Assembly: GCA_964650485.1 (NCBI GenBank)
Contig: CAZYTX010000003.1
Location: forward strand, 57,114 to 121,113
Length of the DNA stretch: 64,000 nucleotides
Direction of reading: 5' to 3'
Source: an uncultured bacterium
GTDB taxonomy: Bacteria > RBG-13-61-14 > DATKZS01
Part shown: piece by piece, positions 16,164 to 52,576 of the stretch
How the letters are laid out: every line of letters starts with the position of its first letter
Position numbering within the stretch: the stretch's first letter is position 1
Notes under the pieces: model-generated
Seen by the model: only the letters and a program-made list of their open reading frames with translations
What the model was told of the DNA's origin: nothing
The model's database searches: none
Position numbers and translations under genes: made by a program

Positions 16164-17570
16164 ATGCAAGACAGTGGCCGGACCAGACGAGAGTTTATGA
16201 GGGCTCTCGCCGCGGGCTCACTTGCGCTCGCCTCGGCAGGTGCACGCGGCTCATACGCGCCGGAGAAGAAGCCAAACATAATCTACATACTGCTCGACGA
16301 CGCAGGCTACGGCGACCTTAGCTGCTACGGCCAGGACAGGTTCGAAACGCCGAACATTGACCGCCTGGCCGGTGAAGGCATACGCTTCGAAAGCCACTAC
16401 GCAGGCAGCGCCGTGTGCGCCCCCTCCAGGTGCTCTCTCATGACCGGCTATCACACCGGCCATGCAACCATTCGCGGCAACCGCAGCATGGAGCCGGAGG
16501 GACAGATGCCCCTGCCCGCGGATGCCGTCACCTTGCCTCGGCTGCTGAAAAAAGCGGGGTACAAAAACGGCATGTTCGGAAAATGGGGCTTGGGCCCGCC
16601 GGGGTCGTCCGGTGACCCCATGGACCAGGGGTTCGACAAATTCTTCGGGTATAACTGCCAGAGCCTGGCCCACAACTACTATCCCGAGTATCTCTGGCAT
16701 AACCGCGACAAGGTCATGCTCCACAAGGAGGCCTACTCCCATGACCTCATCATGGAAAAGGCGCTCGAGTTCATAAGGCAGAGCAGCAAAGGCCCGTTCT
16801 TCTGCTACCTGCCGGTGACCATACCGCACGCCTCATTGCACGTGCCCGAGGAGTCGGCCAGGCCCTTCAGGAAGAAGTTCTGGATGTTCGAGCCGGTGCC
16901 AGGGTTCTACGCCGGCCCGGTGATCATGAACCCGGCCGCGTGCTTTGCCGGAATGATGACCAGGCTGGACTCCCAGGTGGGAGAGCTCATGGCGCTTCTT
17001 AAGGAACTCGGCATCGAGGAGGACACCCTGGTCATGCTGACCTCTGACAACGGTCCGCACGCTGAAGGCGGGGCAGTGCCCTGGTTCTTTGACAGCAACG
17101 GGCCGTTCAGGGGCATCAAGAGAGACCTCTACGAGGGCGGCATACGTGTTCCTATGATGGCCAGGTGGCCCGGTGTCATAAAACCGGGCACGGTCACGGG
17201 CCACGTGTCAGCTTTCTGGGACGTGCTCCCCACACTGTGCGATGTTTCAGGGATCAAGGCGCCGGAGGGAACTGACGGCATATCAATGCTTCCCGCGCTG
17301 CTGGGGAGAGAGGAGGGCCAAGAGCAGCACGAGCTTCTATACTGGGAGCTCTCCGAGCTTGGCGGCAGGCAGGCGGTGCGCTCGGGCAAGTGGAAGGCGG
17401 TGCGCTACTTGGTGTCCGTAAACCCTCGCGCCCGGCTCAAGCTCTTTGACCTGGAAAAGGACCCCGAAGAGAAGCACGACCTGGCGGCAAGTTTCCCGGA
17501 TGTGGCCCGCCACATGGAAGGGCTGCTCGCATCCGCACGCACCCCATCGAAGCAGTTCCCGTTATTCTGA
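16164..17570 (+). CDS. Sulfatase (Cys-type, Tat-exported)
   Basis: Tat-like RTRREFMRALAAGS; IIYILLDDAGYGDLSCYG...SAVCAPSRCSLMTGYHTGH (C-x-P-x-R formylglycine motif). Confidence 0.85.
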   Translation: MQDSGRTRREFMRALAAGSLALASAGARGSYAPEKKPNIIYILLDDAGYGDLSCYGQDRFETPNIDRLAGEGIRFESHYAGSAVCAPSRCSLMTGYHTGHATIRGNRSMEPEGQMPLPADAVTLPRLLKKAGYKNGMFGKWGLGPPGSSGDPMDQGFDKFFGYNCQSLAHNYYPEYLWHNRDKVMLHKEAYSHDLIMEKALEFIRQSSKGPFFCYLPVTIPHASLHVPEESARPFRKKFWMFEPVPGFYAGPVIMNPAACFAGMMTRLDSQVGELMALLKELGIEEDTLVMLTSDNGPHAEGGAVPWFFDSNGPFRGIKRDLYEGGIRVPMMARWPGVIKPGTVTGHVSAFWDVLPTLCDVSGIKAPEGTDGISMLPALLGREEGQEQHELLYWELSELGGRQAVRSGKWKAVRYLVSVNPRARLKLFDLEKDPEEKHDLAASFPDVARHMEGLLASARTPSKQFPLF

Positions 17571-18328: not shown

Positions 18329-19726
18329 ATGAGTTGTAAAGAAGATTTACATCGCCGGCGCATCAGTCGCAGGCACGCGGTCAAAATCGCCGCGAGCGGG
18401 CTGACCGGCGGGATGCTGGACCTCGCCGCCAAAGGCGCGCGCGCAAAACATAGTACCCCCAATATCATCGTCATACTCTCGGACAACCAGAGGTGGGACT
18501 TCATGGGGTGCGCCGGTCACCCCTTTGTAAAGACGCCCAACATGGACCGGCTGGCAAAGGAGGGCGTCTTATTCAAAAACGCGTTCGTGACCACCTCGTT
18601 ATGCGGCCCAAGCAGGGCCAGCTTCCTCACCGGCCAGTACGCACACACCCACGGGGTGCGCGACAACCTGACCGTGTGGAGCGACAAGAACGTGACATTC
18701 CTGGAGCTGCTGGGCCGCGCCGGGTATGACAACGCCTTCATAGGCAAGTGGCACATGCCGGGCAAGCTGCCCGAGCTGCGAGGCGTGGACCTGTTCGTGA
18801 CCTTCACCGAACAGAAGGGCCAGGGAAAGTACTTCGACTGTCCACTGGTGGTGGACGGCGAGGTGAGGCCCTCCCGCAAACCCTACATAACCGAGGAGCT
18901 CACCGACTACGCCCTGGAGTTCATCAGAAGGCCGCGGGACAATCCTTTTTGCGTATACCTGTCCCACAAGGCGGTGCACCACAGGTGGCTGCCGCCGCCC
19001 GGTCTCGAGGACCTGTACAAGGGCGAGCACCCGCCCTTCCCGGATGAGTTCAACCCGTTTTCCTTCATAACCGGGGGCAGCCTGTTCGAGGGGCTGATAG
19101 GGATGCCGGACGAGCTGTACTTGGACTACGCCAGGGTGGTCACCTCGCTCGACCGCCAGGTGGGAAGGGTGCTCCAAATGGTTGACAGGCTCGGCATCGC
19201 TGACAATACAATCGTCATCTTCGCAAGCGACAACGGCTTCTTCTTCGGCGAGCACCAGCTCGCCGGCACGGGCAGGTGGCCGTACGAGGAGTCCATACGC
19301 GTGCCCTTTATCGTGCGGGCGCCGGGGCTGGTAAGCGACCCCGGCAGGCGCGCGAGCCAGATGATATTGAACATTGACCTGGCGCCCTCCTTGCTCGACC
19401 TGGCCGGGCTTCCTATACCAAAAAGCATGGAAGGCATAAGCTTCGTGCCCCTGCTCCGCTCGGCCTCGGCCCCCGGCAGAAAAGCCTGGCTCTACGAGTA
19501 CGAAAAGGACTTCCCCTTCAGGATACCCTCCACTCAAGCGGTCCGCACCGAGGACCACGTATACATCGAGTTCCAGGGAAGGAGGGGAGCCGAGCTCTAC
19601 GACTTGAACAAGGACCCCCGACAGATGAACAACTTTGCGGGCGCACCCGAGGGGCGGGCGCTTATGAAAAGACTGAAGCCCTTGCTGAGGGAACTGAAAG
19701 CGGGAGGCCCTGAAAGGCATGAGTGA
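18329..19726 (+). CDS. Sulfatase (Cys-type, probable Tat signal)
   Basis: RRRISRRHAVKIAASG; IIVILSDNQRWDFMGCAGH...TTSLCGPSRASFLTGQYAHTHG (CxPxR). Confidence 0.85.
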   Translation: MSCKEDLHRRRISRRHAVKIAASGLTGGMLDLAAKGARAKHSTPNIIVILSDNQRWDFMGCAGHPFVKTPNMDRLAKEGVLFKNAFVTTSLCGPSRASFLTGQYAHTHGVRDNLTVWSDKNVTFLELLGRAGYDNAFIGKWHMPGKLPELRGVDLFVTFTEQKGQGKYFDCPLVVDGEVRPSRKPYITEELTDYALEFIRRPRDNPFCVYLSHKAVHHRWLPPPGLEDLYKGEHPPFPDEFNPFSFITGGSLFEGLIGMPDELYLDYARVVTSLDRQVGRVLQMVDRLGIADNTIVIFASDNGFFFGEHQLAGTGRWPYEESIRVPFIVRAPGLVSDPGRRASQMILNIDLAPSLLDLAGLPIPKSMEGISFVPLLRSASAPGRKAWLYEYEKDFPFRIPSTQAVRTEDHVYIEFQGRRGAELYDLNKDPRQMNNFAGAPEGRALMKRLKPLLRELKAGGPERHE

Positions 19727-20310: not shown

Positions 20311-21291
20311 TCACTTCGAGGACCCCGCGCACGGGACCTCCCAGTGCACCAGGTCTTTCGAGCGGGCCAGGCCCAGCTTGTTGTCGCCCCTCCTCTTGTG
20401 GGTCTTTCCCTCGGTGCGGCCGGCGTAGATGAGGTAAAAGTGGCCGTCGTGGCGGCGCCAGTCAGCCAGGAAGCAGGCGTTGGCCACGTGGTCGGTGTTG
20501 AATTTCTCCATGGGCACATCGAGCTTTAAAAAATCGCCCCAGGAAGCCCAGTGTTTGTCCTTGTCCCCGCTGCCATCCATCTCCCTTATGAATGGCGCCA
20601 GATCCTCGCGGCCGCCCTGGCGCGCGGTGCACACCAGCCGCCACTTGCCCTCTATCTTTATGAGCTCGCCGTTCTCGAACCATGCAGGCCCCACCTTTCC
20701 CAGCCGGGTCCATCCGGCCGGGCCCATCTCCGCCGCGACCGCTGCCCTGGGCTTCTGGAACTCCTTCCATATTAGATAGTATCGGCTTCCCTCGGCCGCC
20801 ACCGCGGCGTCTATGGCCCTTCTCCATTTTGTTATGTCCCTGGCAAGCGGCTTGCCGCGCTCCCAGTTCTCCAGGTCCTTTGAGGTCGCGTAGAAGAGCT
20901 GGTTGGGCTTCCCGAACCTGTCGCCCCAGGAGTTGTAGGTGAGATAAAAGGTGTCACCCGCCACGGTGAGGTTTGGAGAGCACATGCCGATCCAGCCACC
21001 CTCCTCCCCCCGCCAGTTGAAAAGCGGCTCCGAGTACTCTTTAAAGTCCCGCGTCTTAACGCCCACCACGTGCGAGCGCTCCCTGCCGTCATCTCTATAA
21101 AAGGCCGAGAAGAAGATGTAGAACCACCCGTCCCGGAAGGCCATGCAGGCGTCCTTGGTGGACCAGCCCGGACGCGAGTACACCGGGTTCTCCAGTGTCT
21201 CCCAGTCAATGAAAGGCTCCTCCGCACGGGCACACCATACGCACGCATATAGGAGCACGAGCACGGCCGTTAAAAAATTCCCGCCTCTCAT
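20311..21291 (-). CDS. Secreted glycoside hydrolase, five-bladed beta-propeller type (GH43-like)
   Basis: Signal peptide MRGGNFLTAVLVLLYACVWCARA; ENPVYSRPGWSTKDACMAFRDGWFYIFFSAF...FYLTYNSWGD is reminiscent of GH43/GH32-superfamily propellers. Family-level call only. Confidence 0.5.
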   Translation of the reverse strand: MRGGNFLTAVLVLLYACVWCARAEEPFIDWETLENPVYSRPGWSTKDACMAFRDGWFYIFFSAFYRDDGRERSHVVGVKTRDFKEYSEPLFNWRGEEGGWIGMCSPNLTVAGDTFYLTYNSWGDRFGKPNQLFYATSKDLENWERGKPLARDITKWRRAIDAAVAAEGSRYYLIWKEFQKPRAAVAAEMGPAGWTRLGKVGPAWFENGELIKIEGKWRLVCTARQGGREDLAPFIREMDGSGDKDKHWASWGDFLKLDVPMEKFNTDHVANACFLADWRRHDGHFYLIYAGRTEGKTHKRRGDNKLGLARSKDLVHWEVPCAGSSK

Positions 21292-21482: not shown

Positions 21483-22178
21483 ATGTTACTTAAAGGCAAG
21501 GCCTGGAAGTTCGGGGACCACGTTGACACCGACGTTATCATTCCGGCGAGGCGCCTTACCACCTTTGACCCGGAGGTATTAAAAGACCACTGCATGGAGG
21601 GCCTGGACCCAGGGTTCGCGGACAAGGTGAACCCCGGCGACATCATGGTTGCGGGCCAGAACTTCGGGTGCGGGTCCAGCAGGGAGCACGCGCCCATATC
21701 CATCAAGGCCGCGGGCGTCTCCTGCGTTATCGCCAAGAGCTTCGCGCGCATCTTCTTCAGGAACGCGTTCAACATCGGCCTGCCGGTGCTGGTCTCGCAG
21801 GACGCGCCCGGGGGTGTCGAGACCGGGGACGAGCTCGAGATGGACCTTTCATCGGGCGCCATAAGGAACATCACCCGGGGGACAGAGTACATGGCCGAGC
21901 CGGTGCCCGGGTTCATGCAGGAGCTGGTGGAAGACGGAGGTCTCATGGAGCACGTGAAGAAGATCATGGCCCGGGGCGGCCTCGAGAGCAGCGAAGCACC
22001 CGCTGATACGGAAAGTAATAAGGAGGAGGGCGCGCAGCAACGCGGCGAGAGGATGATGGCGCTGGAGAACGAGCCCGGGCCCGAGGGCAAGACCGCACCC
22101 TGGGTGGAGGAGGAAGAGGAAGCCCCTGCACCCGCGGCTGAAGAGGAACTGGAAGAAGAAGAGGATGAGCAGGAGTAG
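21483..22178 (+). CDS. leuD: 3-isopropylmalate dehydratase small subunit (LeuD-like) with acidic C-terminal tail
   Basis: MLLKGKAWKFGDHVDTDVIIPARRL...AGQNFGCGSSREHAPISIKAAGVSCVIAKSFARIFFRN, then about 60 aa of Glu-rich low complexity. No leuC is adjacent. Confidence 0.8.
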   Translation: MLLKGKAWKFGDHVDTDVIIPARRLTTFDPEVLKDHCMEGLDPGFADKVNPGDIMVAGQNFGCGSSREHAPISIKAAGVSCVIAKSFARIFFRNAFNIGLPVLVSQDAPGGVETGDELEMDLSSGAIRNITRGTEYMAEPVPGFMQELVEDGGLMEHVKKIMARGGLESSEAPADTESNKEEGAQQRGERMMALENEPGPEGKTAPWVEEEEEAPAPAAEEELEEEEDEQE

Positions 22179-22373: not shown

Positions 22374-23447
22374 GTGGCGGATACGTACAGGATAGCGGTG
22401 GTGCCGGGAGACGGCACCGGCCCCGAGGTGGTTGAACAGGGCATGAAAGCGCTCAGGGCCGCGGGGGAGAGGTTCAATATCAAATTCGAGTACAAGCGCT
22501 TCGACCTCGGGGGAGACAGGTATTTGTCAACGGGCGAGGTGCTGCCGGACCAAGAGCTCGATGAGCTGCGCGGCTTTAACGCCATATACCTTGGCGCCCT
22601 GGGCCACCCGGAGGTAAGGCCCGGCATCCTGGAAAAGGGCCTCCTGCTGCGCTTGCGCTTCGAGCTGGACCAGTACGTGAACCTGCGGCCGATAAAGCTA
22701 TACCCTGGGGTATACACTCCGCTGAAGGACAAGGGGCCGGAGCAGGTTGACATGGCGGTGGTTCGCGAGAATACCGAGGGCCTGTACGCTGGGGCCGGCG
22801 GGTTCCTGAAGAGGGGCACACCCGAAGAGGTGGCCATCCAGACCTCGATCAACACCAGGAAGGGCGTGGAGCGGTGCGTTCGCTTCGCATTCGAGTACTG
22901 CATGAAAAGGGACCGGCCGGAGAAGAAGGTCACCCTGTGCGGCAAAACCAACGTGCTCACGTACGCCTTCGACCTGTGGGAGCGCGCCTTCCGCGGGGTG
23001 GCCGAGGAGTACCCGGATGTTAAAGCCGACTACGCCCACGTTGACGCCATCTGCATGTGGATGATAAAGGACCCCGAGTGGTTCGACGTTATCGTGACCG
23101 ACAACATGTTCGGTGACATCATAACCGACCTGGGGGCCATCATACAGGGCGGCATGGGGATAGCCGCGGGTGGCAACCTGAACCCGGAGGGGGTGTCAAT
23201 GTTCGAGCCCATCGGGGGGAGCGCGCCCAAGTACACGGGCAAGGACATGATCAACCCCCTGGCCGCCATAGCCGCGGCCCAGATGATGCTGGAGACACTG
23301 GGGGAGGAGCAGGCCGCAAGCGCGGTGGAGCGGGCCATAATCAAGGTCATAAACAACGACCTCGATGGCATGCAGGCCGGGAAGATGGGCATGACCACCT
23401 CCCAGGTGGGCGACAGGGTCGCGGAATACGTCTCCGCTGAAAAGTAG
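22374..23447 (+). CDS. leuB: 3-isopropylmalate dehydrogenase (isocitrate/isopropylmalate DH family)
   Basis: YRIAVVPGDGTGPEVV...NLRPIKLYPGV...GSAPKYTGKDMINPLAAIAAAQMML. Paralogous specificity such as tartrate or homoisocitrate is not excluded. Confidence 0.8.
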   Translation: MADTYRIAVVPGDGTGPEVVEQGMKALRAAGERFNIKFEYKRFDLGGDRYLSTGEVLPDQELDELRGFNAIYLGALGHPEVRPGILEKGLLLRLRFELDQYVNLRPIKLYPGVYTPLKDKGPEQVDMAVVRENTEGLYAGAGGFLKRGTPEEVAIQTSINTRKGVERCVRFAFEYCMKRDRPEKKVTLCGKTNVLTYAFDLWERAFRGVAEEYPDVKADYAHVDAICMWMIKDPEWFDVIVTDNMFGDIITDLGAIIQGGMGIAAGGNLNPEGVSMFEPIGGSAPKYTGKDMINPLAAIAAAQMMLETLGEEQAASAVERAIIKVINNDLDGMQAGKMGMTTSQVGDRVAEYVSAEK

Positions 23448-23491: not shown

Positions 23492-24637
23492 ATGAAGCAC
23501 CGTGTCGTAGAGCTGCTTGTCTGTCCGCGATGCGGCGCGGAGCTCTCTGTTCTCTCCGCTGCGGAAACCGAGTCCCGCCCCCGGCCGGACTTGTCAGGGA
23601 AAACCCCCGGATGCTCTCGCTACTGCTCACTGCACGACATCCGCCTGCCGCTCCCGCCCGACCGGGATACTCCCGACTGTTCGGGCTGCTACGGCATGGA
23701 GGTGATGTCCGGCTCTCTCGTCTGCGAAAGGGGACACCGGCATTGCATCGAGGGCGGGGTCCCGCGGCTTCTTGCCGAAGAGACCAGCGGAAAAGATGAG
23801 CGCACGTCTTATTCATTCGGGTACGAATGGCTCCGCTTCCGGGTGGACATGGCCTCCGAGGAGCGCGAGGTGTTCCTTTCCGAAACCCAGTCAGGGCCCG
23901 GGGAGTTCCCCGGCAAGCTGGCGCTGGACGCAGGGTGCGGCATGGGCAGGTTCACCGCGGCCGCCGCTGAGCTGGGGGCAGAGGTGGTGGGCCTGGACAT
24001 CTCGCCCGCGACCCGGGCGGCTTTCGAGAAGACAAGAAACCTGCCCATGATGCACGTGGTCAGGGGGGACATAACGAGGCCGCCGCTCAGGGCGGGAGCA
24101 TTCGATATTGTATACAGCCTGGGGGTGCTGCACCACGCCCCCGACACCAGGGCGGCGCTCGACTCCATCGTCCCCCTCGCCCGCATAGGCGGGACCGTGG
24201 CCTTCTGGGTATACGGGAAGGCCGGCAAATACGAAGAATTCGTAAGCAACCCGCTCGAGCCCGGACGCGCGCAGTTCATCGAGAGGCGGCCGTGGCTGCG
24301 GCGCCCCTACTGGCTGGGTCTCAAGGCCAGGACCGCGGCTTCGGACTCGATCAGGGCCGTAACCATCAGGCTGCCGGTCCCCCTGCTCTATAATGTCTGC
24401 CGCCTGCTTGTGCCCCTGGGCGCGGTCCCTCTCATAAAGCACTTCACCTTTTCATCGCACCCTGACCCGCGTGTGCGCTTGCAGGAGAACTTCGACTGGC
24501 TCTCGCCCCCCTTTCAGCACAAGCACACAAAGGAAGAGGTGCGGGCATGGATTTGCGAACTGGGCATGCGGGAGGAGAAGATGCTCGAGCACGGGCTGGT
24601 GCCCAAGGTGGGTTTCAAGGCGCGCAGGGAATCATAA
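23492..24637 (+). CDS. Trm112-like zinc-ribbon domain fused to a class I SAM-dependent methyltransferase
   Basis: N-terminal LLVCPRCGAEL...LVCERGHRHCIEGGVPRLL (Trm112p-like), then LDAGCGMGRFTAAAAELGAEVVGLDISP (motif I) and DIVYSLGVLHH. Confidence 0.75.
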   Translation: MKHRVVELLVCPRCGAELSVLSAAETESRPRPDLSGKTPGCSRYCSLHDIRLPLPPDRDTPDCSGCYGMEVMSGSLVCERGHRHCIEGGVPRLLAEETSGKDERTSYSFGYEWLRFRVDMASEEREVFLSETQSGPGEFPGKLALDAGCGMGRFTAAAAELGAEVVGLDISPATRAAFEKTRNLPMMHVVRGDITRPPLRAGAFDIVYSLGVLHHAPDTRAALDSIVPLARIGGTVAFWVYGKAGKYEEFVSNPLEPGRAQFIERRPWLRRPYWLGLKARTAASDSIRAVTIRLPVPLLYNVCRLLVPLGAVPLIKHFTFSSHPDPRVRLQENFDWLSPPFQHKHTKEEVRAWICELGMREEKMLEHGLVPKVGFKARRES

Positions 24638-24643
24638 TTACAG

Positions 24644-24664
24644 AGGGGGATGCATGCCCCCTCG
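24644..24664 (+). terminator. Stem-loop GAGGGGG-ATGCATG-CCCCCTC immediately after the methyltransferase stop
   Basis: 7-bp GC-rich stem with a 7-nt loop starting 7 nt after TAA. No clear U-tract, so the function is uncertain. Confidence 0.35.
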
Positions 24665-24780
24665 TACCACAATGACTGGTACTCTCCGAATTTTTCCGGG
24701 TGCTCGATCGAAAGCTCGGCAACGTTCATGTTGTCCTCCGTTCTTGTTACCGTCCGGTTTGATGTTTATCCTAGTACGGA

Positions 24781-25962
24781 ATGGTGGACGATGGCAAAGA
24801 AAAGGCTGCGAGCTCCGCGCCGCCCGTTTTCGAGCAGGGCCCTATCCGGCCGCCCTCGGAGGCCCGGTCGCTTTTGGTGCGTGTGACCCGGAACTGCCAC
24901 TGGAACAAGTGCGAGTTCTGCCCGGTGTACAAGGGCCAGAGGTTCTCCCGGCGGAGCGTTTCCGAGGTCAAGGAAGACATCCGGGCCATGGCCTTCTGGT
25001 ACGAGCACGCGGTCTCCGAGTCCTGGCGCCTGGGCTTCGGGGGCAGGCTGGACCAGGGCTCCCTGCCCGCGATCTATCAGCGAAACCATGACAACCCTTA
25101 CATGCACTCCATACTCATATGGCTCTCCGGGGGCGGGACGAGCGCTTTCCTCCAGGACGCGGACTCGATCCTCCTCAAGCCGGATGACCTCGCAGACATA
25201 CTGCGCTTTCTGCGCGAGACCTTCCCCGGCCTCCGCCGGGTGACCACCTACTCTCGCTCCAGCACCTGCTCGAAGCGGGGAGCCGAGGACCTCGCAAAGC
25301 TGAAGCAGGCGGGCATGGACCGGGTGCACATAGGCCTGGAGAGCGGCTCCGACCGAGTGCTTGAAAAGGTGAACAAGGGGGCCACCGCCGATGTGCACGT
25401 GCAGGGGGGCGTGAACGTGAAGCAGGCCGGCCTTGAGTTGTCCGAATACGTCATGCCCGGGCTGGGCGGCAAGGAGCTCTCCGAAGAGCACGCGAGAGAG
25501 ACCGCGCGGGTGCTCAGCAGGATTGACCCGGACTTCATACGCATCCGCTCCTTGGGTCTGAGAAGAGGCATCATAATGTATGAGAGCTGGCAGCAGGGAG
25601 AGTTCGAGCCCTTGAACGACGAGGATACAGCGGCCGAGCTCAAGCTCTTCATCCAGGGACTTGAGGGCATAAGCTCGCAGGTGGTGAGCGACCACATCTT
25701 GAACCTTCTGCCCGAGGTCGAGGGCAAGCTGCCGGAGGACAAGCAAAGGATTATCGAGGTCATTGACAGGTTCCTGGGACTCCCGGACGAGGAGCGGACA
25801 ACCTATGTGGTGGGGAGAAGATTCGGGCTGTTCGAGGGACTGGACGACCTGGAGGAGCCCACTCAGAGGTCGGCTGCAAGAAGGGCCATGCAAAAGCTCA
25901 GGGAGCAGGGCGGCGAAAACATACATGACACTATCCGGGACATAATCAGCCGCTTCATATGA
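24781..25962 (+). CDS. Radical SAM enzyme with non-canonical CX4CX2C cluster motif
   Basis: RNCHWNKCEFCPVYKG (C-x4-C-x2-C, as in ELP3-type radical SAM), LSGGGTSAF and HIGLESGSDRVL elements. No SPASM or B12 domain seen, so the substrate is unknown. Confidence 0.7.
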   Translation: MVDDGKEKAASSAPPVFEQGPIRPPSEARSLLVRVTRNCHWNKCEFCPVYKGQRFSRRSVSEVKEDIRAMAFWYEHAVSESWRLGFGGRLDQGSLPAIYQRNHDNPYMHSILIWLSGGGTSAFLQDADSILLKPDDLADILRFLRETFPGLRRVTTYSRSSTCSKRGAEDLAKLKQAGMDRVHIGLESGSDRVLEKVNKGATADVHVQGGVNVKQAGLELSEYVMPGLGGKELSEEHARETARVLSRIDPDFIRIRSLGLRRGIIMYESWQQGEFEPLNDEDTAAELKLFIQGLEGISSQVVSDHILNLLPEVEGKLPEDKQRIIEVIDRFLGLPDEERTTYVVGRRFGLFEGLDDLEEPTQRSAARRAMQKLREQGGENIHDTIRDIISRFI

Positions 25963-26091
25963 CATCACTTGCAAAAGCGTTGCCCGTGTTCAAGACCAGG
26001 CATGCATTCAAGCCCGGCAGCGGCGGCCTTCCTTTTTCCACTCAACCGCGGTTGCACTCTCCATAAATTTAGTATAAAATATGCCATAATC

Positions 26092-26733
26092 ATGTATAAT
26101 TTAATTAAAATTGTTAAGAATTTGATTAACTGTTTTGTGCTCGCGGTCTTGACGGCGCTCCTCATGTGCCAGCCGGCCCGGGCAGAGAAGGGGGCCGTGC
26201 ACCTGGGCCTTGCATCCCACTTTGTATGGCCTCAAATGGACGTTGCCGAGTTCGAGCCCGGCCTCTCCTACGGCGCCGTGTTCCATTACTGGCTGAACGA
26301 CACCACCAGCATCGAGCTCGGCTACGAGTACATGAACTTTAAAAGCCCTCTGGACGCGGGTGGTGAAGGTGAGCACATAAGCTACGTCACCAATATAATC
26401 GAGGGCGGGGCCAGGTACAGGCCGGAGCTTGATTTTATCATGACGCCTTTTGTGGAGGCCGGGATAGGCTACCAGTTCTGGAGCACGGACCCTGGTGTGG
26501 ACTTCCTGGATTCCAGGAGCGGGAACTCGGTGGCCTACTTCTTGGGCAGCGGACTTGTATACCATTTCAGGAAGCTCTTCCTGGCGTCGCTTTCCGTGCG
26601 CTGGCACTATATGCCCATGCACGAGCACATAGTGGTGGAGACGGACGATGCAGGGGGGAACGTTCGCGAGCGGAACCTGAGAGACGTGAGCTACCTATCC
26701 GCGGGGATTGAAATGGTGTGGAGACTGAAGTGA
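26092..26733 (+). CDS. Outer-membrane beta-barrel protein (OmpW/OmpA-like small barrel)
   Basis: Signal peptide MYNLIKIVKNLINCFVLAVLTALLMCQPARA, alternating amphipathic beta-strands and a C-terminal aromatic residue (…MVWRLK). Confidence 0.6.
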   Translation: MYNLIKIVKNLINCFVLAVLTALLMCQPARAEKGAVHLGLASHFVWPQMDVAEFEPGLSYGAVFHYWLNDTTSIELGYEYMNFKSPLDAGGEGEHISYVTNIIEGGARYRPELDFIMTPFVEAGIGYQFWSTDPGVDFLDSRSGNSVAYFLGSGLVYHFRKLFLASLSVRWHYMPMHEHIVVETDDAGGNVRERNLRDVSYLSAGIEMVWRLK

Positions 26734-26740
26734 AGGAGAG

Positions 26741-27247
26741 GTGGAGATGAAGAGGACGGCCATTGCATTTGTGGTGGTAATCATGTTCGCGGGGGGCGCC
26801 GCGGCCCAGGAGCAGGCCGGCTCTCTCACCAGCAGGGGCGGCTACGTGAGCATCGGCATTGCCGGCGGCATGCTTATAGACCCGGACATGGCCGGCGGCG
26901 CCTTCAGCCTGGACTACTACGTGACCGACGAGATATCGGTGGGTCCCTACTTTGTGGGGGGCGGGTACGAGGACAACAGCTTCTGGGGTGTGAGCGGGCA
27001 GGTGAAGTTCTCCGCGCCCCTGGCCGGGAACGCCAGTGTCAGGCCCTACGGCCAGCTGGGCATCGGGTTCGTGGAGTTGGACTTCGAAGACAGGGAGGAC
27101 GACCCGGAGATGACCTACTTCTTTCCTTTGGCAGGCGGGTTCGAGTTCGAGCTTACCGACATCCTGTCTTTGGACGTGGGCGGCCAGTTCCACGTGACCG
27201 AGGACACCTTTGCAGGCGCCATGGTGGGCTTACGGGTGCTGCTCTGA
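26741..27247 (+). CDS. Outer-membrane beta-barrel protein (8-stranded, OmpA-like N-domain type)
   Basis: MKRTAIAFVVVIMFAGGAAAQ signal; Gly/aromatic-rich alternating strands; C-terminus GLRVLL. Confidence 0.6.
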   Translation: MEMKRTAIAFVVVIMFAGGAAAQEQAGSLTSRGGYVSIGIAGGMLIDPDMAGGAFSLDYYVTDEISVGPYFVGGGYEDNSFWGVSGQVKFSAPLAGNASVRPYGQLGIGFVELDFEDREDDPEMTYFFPLAGGFEFELTDILSLDVGGQFHVTEDTFAGAMVGLRVLL

Positions 27248-27370: not shown

Positions 27371-28221
27371 TCAGTCCCACTTGTAATTCTCGTCGAGCGC
27401 ATACTTTTCCTCCACCCCTATCATCCTGGTGAACTCATTGAAGTCCATCATCTGATCGCGTATGGCCTCGGTGTCCCCGTGCTCGATCAGGTGCCGGAAG
27501 GTCTTATCCAGCGCTTTGGCCGCGGCGAACAGCCCGGAGAGCACGTACCCCACCGAGAAGAAGCCCATCTCCTGGAGCTCGGAAAGCGGCAGCAGCGGGG
27601 TCCGGCCACCCTCGATGCAGTTCACCACCAGGGGCGGCGGGACCTCGGCCGCTATCCTCTTCATCTCCTCCCTGGTGCGGGGGGCCTCCACGAATATGAG
27701 GGTGGCCCCGGCCTCCTTGTAGACCCTGCCACGGCGGATGGCCTCGTCCAGGCCCAGCGGGTCCCGGGCGTCCGTCCGCGCGGTGATGATAAAGGGCCGG
27801 TCGCCCCTGGCGTCGGCCGCGGCCCTCACCTTGGCAGCGTGCTCCTCCATGGGCACCACCGACTTGCCGCGCATGTGGCCGCAGCGCTTGGGCCAGGTCT
27901 GGTCCTCGAGCAGCACCCCCCGGCGCCCATATTGAGGGCCTCCTTTACCGGCCTGTATACGTTGAGCGGTCCCCCGAACCCGGTGTCGCCGTCTATAACA
28001 ACCCCGATGTCCACCGCGTTCACCACCCGCCGGGCCACGTTCAGCACCTCGGTCTGGGTGAGCAGCCCGAAGTCGGGCTCGCCCAGGTGGGAGGCGGCCA
28101 CACCGAAGCCGGTCACCACCACCGAGTGGAACCCGGCCCGCTCGGCTATCTTTGCGGAGAACACGTCGTACACCCCCGCGGCCAGCACCACCTTTCTCTG
28201 CTCGATCAAGGGATGCACCAT
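27371..28221 (-). pseudogene. PEP mutase / isocitrate lyase superfamily gene (2-methylisocitrate lyase or carboxy-PEP mutase-like) split by a -1 frameshift in a C6/G6 homopolymer near 27915
   Basis: The upstream half MVHPLIEQRKVVLAAGVYDVFSAKIAERAGF...GDTGFGGPLNV...NMGAGG and downstream half LLEDQTWPKRCGHMRGKSVVP...FVEAP are contiguous family motifs (K-R-C-G-H). Adding one G to the GGGGGG run restores a single frame of about 283 aa. Confidence 0.6.
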
Positions 28222-51073: not shown

Positions 51074-52504
51074 TCACGGCTTGTAAAAGAGATACAAGTC
51101 CTTTTGCGGCGCCGGCTGGTATGCTTCAAGCTTTATCTCTCCTTCTTCCACGGAAGTTGCTATAAGGGGCTCGCCTCGGACCACGACCTGCACCCTGCCG
51201 GCGGGGTCCCCTGGAAAGTCGGGCCGCTTTTCTTTGAGCTTTTCGAGTTTGATTTCAGCCGCGCCAGCGGAGGCTGTGAACTCCTGCTGGTCTAGCCTTA
51301 TGCACTCGACCTCGGAGGCCCCCTCGATGACCGCCCGTGGCATCCTGGACACCTGTGTCGCTGCCAGGAGGAGGCCGCCCACGCCGTAGGTGGCGCTGTG
51401 ATTCTCGAAGTCCCTTTTTACGGGCCCGCGTCCCACTGGCTGCACGCGCATGACCTTGCCCGAGTCCTTGACCGAGAGATCCAGGAAGTGCCACGCCTTC
51501 TGCACCACCGGCAGGTACTCTTCTTCCGGCAGGTGCCCCCGGTTTATCATGTATGCCAGCATGTATGTAAAGAATGCGCTGCCCGAGTTCTCGGGCATCT
51601 TGTAGTTCGCGAGATCGAGTACGTCCGAGTTCCATGTGCCCACGATGTTGCGATTTTGCTTCAGGGTCTTGGCCATCTGCCTGAGCTGGTCCACTAACCA
51701 CTTTGCGTCTTTCTCGTATGAAGGCTCGTCCTTTAGAACGTCCAGGACCTTCACGTAGCCCGCGGCCACCCAGCCGTTGCCGCGTCCCCACTGGTACTCG
51801 CCTATGCTCCTCTTGTCGTGCCAGTAGAGCCCGGTCTCCGGGTCTTTCAAGATGTCCGCGTATGCGCGGCAGTACTCCATGGCGATGGTGCGGGCGTCCT
51901 TGTTGTTCGGTATACCCTTGCTTCCTGCCGCGCGACCCCTCCTGGCAAGGAAGGGCGGCACCATGTGAAGGTCGTCGTTCCAGAACCGCATCCAGTAGTC
52001 GTCGTAGCCCGTGCCCCTTTGCGCCGGCTTCCTCCCCTTTACGATGAACTCGATCATGCCGTCGGTGAGCTCCAAGTGTTTTGATGTCCGGCCCGACCTC
52101 TCGTAAAGCCAGATATAGGTCTGGCCCGCGCACACCGCGTCGCCGTGGAAGACCCAGAAGGGGTAGCCCCCCGGGTCCCGGTCGGCCCAAGCCTCCAGGT
52201 AGTCCATGTACCTGGGCACTTCCCGGCCGGTCTCGGAAAGCCGGTCGTAGAGCGCGGCCACCCCGGACATCAGGGTCGAGTCCTCCCAGTAAAGGTTGTG
52301 GTGCACATTGATTGCAGGCATTGCTCTATCGTCCCGGATGACTTCCCCGAACAGCTCGTGATCGGCCGCGGCCACGGCAACGGCCAGAGGACCCCTGCCA
52401 CTCTCGCGCTCTCCGGCGCCCGCGGACAGGGCCGCGGAGAGCGGGAGCGAAAGCAGGGCAATCATGCCTGCTATGAAAGTGATACTTTTATTGCCGGGCT
52501 TCAT
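51074..52504 (-). CDS. Unsaturated glucuronyl/rhamnogalacturonyl hydrolase (GH88/GH105 family), secreted
   Basis: Signal peptide MKPGNKSITFIAGMIALLSLPLSA; WNDDLHMVPPFLARRG and RGNGWVAAGYVKVLDVL, characteristic of the YteR/UGL (alpha/alpha)6 family. Confidence 0.75.
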   Translation of the reverse strand: MKPGNKSITFIAGMIALLSLPLSAALSAGAGERESGRGPLAVAVAAADHELFGEVIRDDRAMPAINVHHNLYWEDSTLMSGVAALYDRLSETGREVPRYMDYLEAWADRDPGGYPFWVFHGDAVCAGQTYIWLYERSGRTSKHLELTDGMIEFIVKGRKPAQRGTGYDDYWMRFWNDDLHMVPPFLARRGRAAGSKGIPNNKDARTIAMEYCRAYADILKDPETGLYWHDKRSIGEYQWGRGNGWVAAGYVKVLDVLKDEPSYEKDAKWLVDQLRQMAKTLKQNRNIVGTWNSDVLDLANYKMPENSGSAFFTYMLAYMINRGHLPEEEYLPVVQKAWHFLDLSVKDSGKVMRVQPVGRGPVKRDFENHSATYGVGGLLLAATQVSRMPRAVIEGASEVECIRLDQQEFTASAGAAEIKLEKLKEKRPDFPGDPAGRVQVVVRGEPLIATSVEEGEIKLEAYQPAPQKDLYLFYKP

Positions 52505-52576
52505 CCCGTTTCCTTTCTTCCTTATCAATCTCAAGCGTATAAGTGCCTCTACACGATCCATTGGCATCAGGCACAA

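Follow-up and report, generated by a model that had tools for sequence, protein, structure and literature searches.

When several genes follow one another on a single strand, the question arises whether they serve a common pathway or have come together by chance. This question is raised by a block of four genes at positions 23492–27247 of a 64,000-nucleotide (nt) stretch of contig CAZYTX010000003.1, from an uncultured bacterium; the whole stretch is hereafter called the window. The block encodes a Trm112-ribbon methyltransferase dependent on S-adenosylmethionine (SAM), a radical SAM (rSAM) enzyme, and two outer-membrane β-barrel proteins, which we refer to as OMP1 and OMP2. The initial annotation of this DNA described a Trm112–methyltransferase fusion, an rSAM enzyme and two small tandem outer-membrane barrels, and proposed that they might form a modification operon. 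The four open reading frames (ORFs) are present on the + strand as it described them. Our analysis nevertheless leads us to think it likely that the four genes make up three independent units, set side by side by chance, and not a pathway operon. These units would be a methyltransferase of a widespread Trm112-ribbon family, brought next to the rSAM gene by rearrangement; a stand-alone ELP3-like rSAM enzyme; and a fixed OMP1–OMP2 tandem, limited to one bacterial lineage, which may often lie downstream of rSAM through inherited synteny.

The junction between the methyltransferase and rSAM genes is a rearrangement scar, because the spacer holds the stub of a gene that is intact, and divergent from rSAM, in a relative whose rSAM protein is 69% identical. 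In this relative (L092), the gene order is GT2–GT4–BrkB–AMP-binding(-)–rSAM, and the stub in the window corresponds to the N-terminus of the 503-residue AMP-binding (acyl-CoA-synthetase-like) protein, with 18 of 24 residues identical (tblastn E 1e-7; MNVAELSIEHPEKFGEYQSLWYEG in the window, MNVAELSIEHLERFGEYRTMWFEG in L092). Both the DNA alignment and the translations confirmed the stub, which is divergent from rSAM and placed with respect to its start just as the intact gene is in L092. Homology to the AMP-binding gene breaks off abruptly ~20 nt after the stop codon of the methyltransferase gene, and no remainder of the gene was found in the 64-kb window. A further locus (L088) has the order methyltransferase–GT2–GT4–BrkB, its GT2, GT4 and BrkB genes being orthologous to those of L092 at 43–62% identity. 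Since L088 and L092 overlap on these three genes, we propose methyltransferase–GT2–GT4–BrkB–AMP(-)–rSAM as the ancestral order, from which the middle genes would have been lost along with all of the AMP-binding gene except its first 24 codons, so that the methyltransferase gene would have come to meet the rSAM gene. We infer a deletion as the simplest event behind the scar, and a more complex rearrangement could also have produced it; whichever rearrangement took place, the adjacency of methyltransferase and rSAM genes is recent and accidental.

Comparison with other genomes leads in the same direction. The set comprised 87 loci with an rSAM gene and as much as 8 kb on either side of it, and in 84 of these all ORFs were clustered without bias. 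Using the window methyltransferase as a tblastn query, no homologue was found near rSAM in any of the 87 loci, and no rSAM gene lies beside the methyltransferase homologue in any of three loci inspected from that side (44–61% identity to the window protein). Two of these three homologues sit among glycosyltransferase genes, with GT2, GT4 and BrkB in L088 and with Wzy_C and GT4 in L090, which suggests a context of glycan modification. In the closest relative of the window (L091, 74% rSAM identity), rSAM–OMP1–OMP2 and the downstream synteny are kept and the upstream gene is a different one; the methyltransferase orthologue from the same sample lies on another contig, again beside glycosyltransferases. 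A conserved partner gene for rSAM was sought and rejected, the neighbours being housekeeping genes each present in at most 18% of the 84 loci. The commonest are pcm and an M23 peptidase gene on the upstream side (15 of 84 loci), followed on the downstream side by SirC/HemA (7–9 loci) and CarD/PIN (7–8 loci), and five individual locus look-ups returned five different contexts.

In loci from Thermodesulfobacteriota (L010–L087), rSAM often follows pcm and an M23/LysM peptidase gene (15 loci each) and then precedes either SirC, a cytochrome-c-assembly-like gene and hemA (7–9 loci) or carD and a PIN-domain gene (7–8 loci); examples of such neighbours are found at L079 6229–6975, L051 6762–7922, L080 2767–3588, L029 2016–4181 and L056 9251–9856. 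These contexts look like clade-specific housekeeping syntenies. A role in haem biosynthesis, at which SirC/HemA and the naming of one NCBI homologue as 'coproporphyrinogen III oxidase' might hint, was rejected on the grounds that the synteny is clade-specific and the family fails to match the HemN/HemZ models.

With these data, a single operon of all four genes making a modified RNA, lipid or small molecule appears very improbable: the shared strand, the lack of detected terminators and the fact that a methyltransferase with an rSAM enzyme is a common biosynthetic pairing are outweighed by the mutual absence of the two genes from each other's loci, by the truncated opposite-strand remnant between them and by the changed upstream gene in L091. 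The neighbourhood comparison that the initial annotation itself suggested as a check therefore speaks against its operon, whose methyltransferase adjacency is unique to this genome and whose barrel link is confined to one narrow lineage. A more specific pairing comes to mind from tRNA modification, given that the best NCBIfam match of the rSAM protein is MnmL/YtqA (TIGR01212). According to a preprint (bioRxiv 10.64898/2026.05.18.725915), MnmL/YhcC remodels the C5 side chain of tRNA U34, and MnmL works with a stand-alone methylase, MnmM. That the methyltransferase and rSAM genes are an MnmM/MnmL-like pair is nonetheless extremely improbable, since the rSAM match reaches 47.5 bits against a cut-off of 180 (E 1e-12) and covers profile positions 127–266 of 302 only, no MnmM model stands among the best 25 of 39 NCBIfam matches of the methyltransferase, all of those listed being far below their cut-offs, and the pairing would have to reconcile a scarred, unconserved adjacency with methyltransferase relatives that live among glycosyltransferases.

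The link between rSAM and the barrel pair is a different matter, and here several points weigh against treating the genes as independent. Of eight distinct contexts in which the pair is found, six (the window, L091, L002, L008, L093 and L095) have rSAM immediately upstream, with spacers of ~60–160 nt between rSAM and pair while the outer flanks differ; this linkage is more persistent than most synteny at 36–47% OMP1 identity, and could reflect co-transcription. In the window, neither the methyltransferase–rSAM spacer nor the rSAM–OMP1 spacer contains a detectable terminator or a convincing promoter, leaving room for read-through transcription that may extend over all four genes. Such observations would fit a lineage-specific functional module, in which rSAM, OMP1 and OMP2 share a transcript and the product of rSAM, such as a modified lipid, a cofactor or an envelope component, is used with or exported to the barrels. 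We consider this module unlikely, as in two lineages the pair has no rSAM gene next to it, the order being NnrU–OMP1–OMP2–dual-specificity (DSP) phosphatase in one (L094 and L096–L098) and GH94(-)–OMP1–OMP2–phosphoenolpyruvate (PEP) mutase(-) in the other (L099 and L100), and one of these two lineages keeps rSAM ~28 kb from the pair, on the same contig and the opposite strand (GCA_035527835.1, contig DATKZS010000127.1). Likewise, rSAM orthologues at 63–64% identity have no adjacent pair, which is absent beside rSAM in L003 and in L009 (64% identity); by tblastn, OMP1 and OMP2 occur among the 87 rSAM loci only in the closest relatives of the window, and more than 80 other loci of the rSAM family are devoid of barrel genes, including those of Dehalococcoidia and Syntrophomonadaceae, which are classically described as monoderm, that is, without an outer membrane. 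A DSP phosphatase gene downstream is moreover about as frequent a companion of the pair, and no pathway is known to connect OmpX-like barrels with an rSAM enzyme of the cytoplasm. Because the pair is separate from rSAM in two lineages and absent beside rSAM in L009, their linkage resembles synteny inherited within the lineage and disrupted on more than one occasion. The same six of eight contexts also leave room for a broader proposal, namely that the rSAM protein belongs to a large offshoot of ELP3/YhcC, lacking the KAT domain and carrying out an undescribed radical modification in strict anaerobes, and that one lineage recruited it alongside two dedicated barrels, for instance to produce or handle a modified component of the envelope; the distribution across the whole family speaks against this, and we hold it to be distinctly unlikely.

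Returning to the three-unit interpretation, we regard the rSAM enzyme as the one notable part of the block. It is a member of the radical SAM superfamily (Radical_SAM, PF04055, 57 bits) whose residues 39–47 read C-HWNK-C-EF-C. Twenty homologues at 48–74% identity to the window protein share ~90 invariant positions, including this CX4CX2C motif, within an invariant N-terminal motif FEQGPIRPPSEAxSLLxRxTRNCxWNxCxFC. The second half of the barrel is ELP3-like, with GLESGSD and MPGLGG, and the conserved C-terminal motifs SDHxxNLLxExEG and GRRxG belong to a family-specific helical domain. Pfam and NCBIfam scans found no B12 (PF02310) or SPASM match, in agreement with the initial annotation, and no Pfam acetyltransferase match was obtained either, the C-terminal region being all-helical and ending at residue 393. 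Conservation of cysteine is limited to the three of the cluster motif, and most members have no further cysteine, so the sequences point to one [4Fe-4S] cluster per enzyme.

The family is large and uncharacterised, and its gene normally stands alone. It comprises ~8000 proteins in a 90%-clustered database and 906 clusters at 50% identity (E<=1e-30), and occurs in at least 590 species of a genome collection. Its hosts are mainly Thermodesulfobacteriota, with others among Acidobacteriota, Dehalococcoidia/Chloroflexota and Syntrophomonadaceae; the family occurs mostly in anaerobic lineages, and its matches in metagenome-assembled genomes indicate genera such as Syntrophobacter, Smithella and Desulfacinum. 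The proteins are mostly acidic (isoelectric point, pI, 5.5–6.8). We noticed a subgroup of shorter members (~300–360 residues; P0282, P0284, P0293, P0302 and others) that match the family profile in two stretches, best from about position 111; between the cluster loop and strand 2, their helical insertion seems to be incomplete. A literature search returned nothing matching the N-terminal motif of the family and nothing family-specific on CX4CX2C or Elp3-like proteins.

Among solved structures, Elp3 is the only one that the rSAM sequence matches (single-sequence E ~1e-10; profile E 1e-13 over residues 158–277), and ELP3 (PDB 6iad, 5l7j) is also the best match in Foldseek (E 4e-8). The archaeal Elp3 of M. 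infernus (6iad) carries CPHGKCIFCP, which aligns to CPWNKCEFCP of the rSAM family profile, so that the CX4CX2C spacing assigned to the ELP3 lineage by the initial annotation is borne out in both proteins. For the ELP3 and YhcC megaclusters, RadicalSAM.org gives cluster spacings of CX11CX2C and CX7CX2C (PMC9477430), from which CX4CX2C in the window protein differs. Both ELP3 and the window protein have GxxSGS and MPGxxG motifs in the second barrel half, and the window protein gives a faint Radical_SAM_C match, whereas the C-terminal GNAT/KAT acetyl-CoA-binding domain of ELP3 is missing from the window protein, and the score against the ELP3 model (TIGR01211) is 41.8 bits against a cut-off of 350, over residues 169–284 only. 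The other near family, MnmL/YtqA/YhcC (IPR005911), which converts cmnm5s2U to nm5s2U in tRNA, resembles the window protein in having no B12 or SPASM domain. YhcC is reported to act in anaerobic growth, a parallel to the mostly anaerobic hosts of the window family; in contrast, YhcC is described with a positively charged cleft and the window family is mostly acidic.

No NCBIfam cut-off was reached by the rSAM protein, and identities as ELP3, MnmL, HemN/HemZ, MiaB/RimO, HpnJ, PhpK or LipS2 were all rejected at scores far below the cut-offs. The initial annotation was thus right to treat the enzyme as uncharacterised. It had offered, as an outcome that would overturn it, a well-characterised rSAM family with unrelated neighbours in other genomes; the neighbours elsewhere are indeed unrelated, and the sub-family models place the protein in no such family.

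In what is presumably a cytoplasmic enzyme, the lone [4Fe-4S] site, a CX4CX2C cluster, would by analogy with the superfamily bind SAM and cleave it reductively to a 5'-deoxyadenosyl radical, which would take a hydrogen atom from the substrate. Methylthiolation-type, B12-methylation-type and ELP3-type acetyl-radical chemistries were rejected in their known forms, as the protein lacks a GNAT domain, a cobalamin domain and a second cluster. ELP3, like MnmL/YhcC, remodels the C5 side chain of tRNA U34, and because both of the nearest characterised families act there, a nucleic-acid substrate, tRNA or another RNA, is our leading guess, though a tentative one; otherwise the enzyme may act on some small molecule or protein. 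Three observations count against an RNA substrate: the homology behind the guess is weak and reaches over the second barrel half only, most members have an acidic pI, which disfavours RNA binding, and no rSAM neighbour is informative.

The methyltransferase has a Methyltransf_11 core (69 bits), in which a Rossmann fold at residues ~140–240 carries LDAGCGMGR, preceded by a putative Trm112-like zinc ribbon at residues ~1–97. The ribbon scores below threshold against Trm112p (PF03966; 19.3 bits against a cut-off of 22), in a match split by an insertion, and against the Trm112_arch model (E 1e-5). The fusion is probably genuine, because the family spans the full length (at least 1349 proteins match from end to end), many members have precomputed PF03966 and methyltransferase domains, and the CPxC...C ribbon is conserved among the homologues; JGI labels several of them 'methyltransferase/YbaR (Trm112 family)'. 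This would be the layout of known Trm112-fused class I methyltransferases (PF03966 + PF08241; COG 'YbaR/Trm112 family' fusions), where a CPxC...C ribbon is followed by a Methyltransf_11 core, an architecture common to hundreds of full-length homologues of the window protein. Unlike other such fusions, the window subfamily has an extra ~50-residue Cys-rich insertion in the ribbon (CSRYC...CSGC) and a conserved C-terminal extension of ~140 residues (ENFDWLSPPFQHKHTKEE).

OMP2 reaches 31.7 bits against OMP_b-brl (PF13505), above the cut-off of 28.7; OMP1, at 21.6 bits, falls below it, and its orthologues carry PF13505. In an AlphaFold2 (AF2) model with a pLDDT of 83, OMP2 folds as a signal helix followed by eight strands, and Foldseek retrieves Ail, the OmpA transmembrane domain, the N-terminal domain of OprF, NspA and OmpX. 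In this model, OMP2 appears to have in common with OmpX/Ail, the OmpA N-terminal domain, OprF-N and NspA a signal peptide and eight antiparallel strands, and the matches to OmpX/Ail-type barrels have Foldseek E-values of ~1e-6 to 4e-5 and query-normalised TM-scores of 0.5–0.7 at 13–18% identity. The OMP2 family differs from those barrels in being tiny, lineage-restricted and always paired with a second barrel gene: we found 17 homologues in a collection of 5.8 billion proteins and three in a metagenome scan, and the OMP1–OMP2 tandem is invariant wherever found. A recent duplication within the pair was rejected, the two proteins being only remotely related (BLASTP E 0.27; hhalign probability 23%). 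A dual-specificity/tyrosine-phosphatase-like gene follows the pair on the same strand in L091 (8456–9082), L093 (2161–2637), L094 (6576–7193) and L096–L098 (7576–8193); the window has no phosphatase-like gene after OMP2.

Table 1. Features of the four-gene block, in coordinates of the window.
Feature	Position	Strand	Basis
Methyltransferase, class I SAM-dependent, 381 aa	23492–24637	+	Pfam/NCBIfam matches, alignment of family
AMP-binding gene stub, 24 codons of the 5' end, MNVAELSIEHPEKFGEYQSLWYEG	24658–24729	-	tblastn against L092, DNA alignment, translations
rSAM enzyme, 393 aa, putative single [4Fe-4S] site	24781–25962	+	Radical_SAM (PF04055) 57 bits, three Cys
Cluster-binding motif C39-x4-C44-x2-C47	24895–24921	+	TGC CAC TGG AAC AAG TGC GAG TTC TGC
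rSAM–OMP1 spacer, 129 nt, AT-rich toward 3' end	25963–26091	+	
OMP1, 213 aa, predicted outer-membrane β-barrel, signal peptide (…CQPARA/EKG)	26092–26733	+	Orthologues with PF13505
OMP2, 166 aa, predicted 8-stranded outer-membrane β-barrel, signal peptide (…GAAA/QEQ)	26747–27247	+	PF13505, AF2 model

The block is preceded by leuD (21483–22178) and leuB (22374–23447); on its downstream side, genes for a PEP-mutase-family protein and threonine aldolase, with coaX, birA and nadC, run convergently towards it. The description of its gaps as short, made in the initial annotation, holds for OMP1–OMP2 (13 nt), as it does for leuB–methyltransferase (44 nt), and not for methyltransferase–rSAM (143 nt) or rSAM–OMP1 (129 nt). 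Alignment of orthologues makes ATG 26092 the most likely start of OMP1, not TTG 25969, and ATG 26747 as the start of OMP2 agrees with a database protein (P0241). In neither the methyltransferase–rSAM nor the rSAM–OMP1 spacer was a terminator found or a + strand promoter called; the spacers gave no Rfam match even at E<=1 and no tRNAs, and the rSAM–OMP1 spacer has no significant RNA fold (z = 0.01). An AT-rich stretch of ~80 nt (26055–26135, in a genome of ~60% GC) runs from the end of this spacer through the first OMP1 codons, and no consensus sigma-70 promoter was called in it on the + strand.

Some further features of the window lie outside the block. The PEP-mutase/isocitrate-lyase-family gene downstream (27371–28221, - strand) lacks 1 nt in a C/G run near 27912–27920 (GGCGCC-GGGGGG in the window, GGCGCCCGGGGGG in L091), which breaks it into two overlapping ORFs, and its orthologue is intact in L091 (288 residues) and L099 (283 residues); either the gene is truly a pseudogene or the assembly is wrong here. 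Upstream, the LeuD-like small subunit (Aconitase_C; + strand) has a C-terminal tail of ~60–70 residues rich in Glu, Ala and Pro (…EEEEEAPAPAAEEELEEEEDEQE), which is unusual for LeuD. The window is also rich in glycan-degradation and surface genes (16164–17570, 18329–19726, 20311–21291, 51074–52576 and 38596–44676), among them two sulfatases, a GH43-like protein, a GH88 protein and a 2026-residue protein with papain-like protease, lectin-like, TSP3 and PD40 domains.

As a four-gene operon, then, the block would not repay experimental work, and it illustrates that same-strand adjacency can be the scar of a recent deletion, which inspection of the spacer reveals directly. For its one notable part, the widespread and uncharacterised rSAM enzyme, the window gives no further functional clue. 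This family is nevertheless strongly conserved, has no curated model and is nearest to two enzymes that modify the wobble uridine of tRNA; knowledge of its substrate would close one of the wider gaps in the ELP3/YhcC part of the rSAM superfamily.

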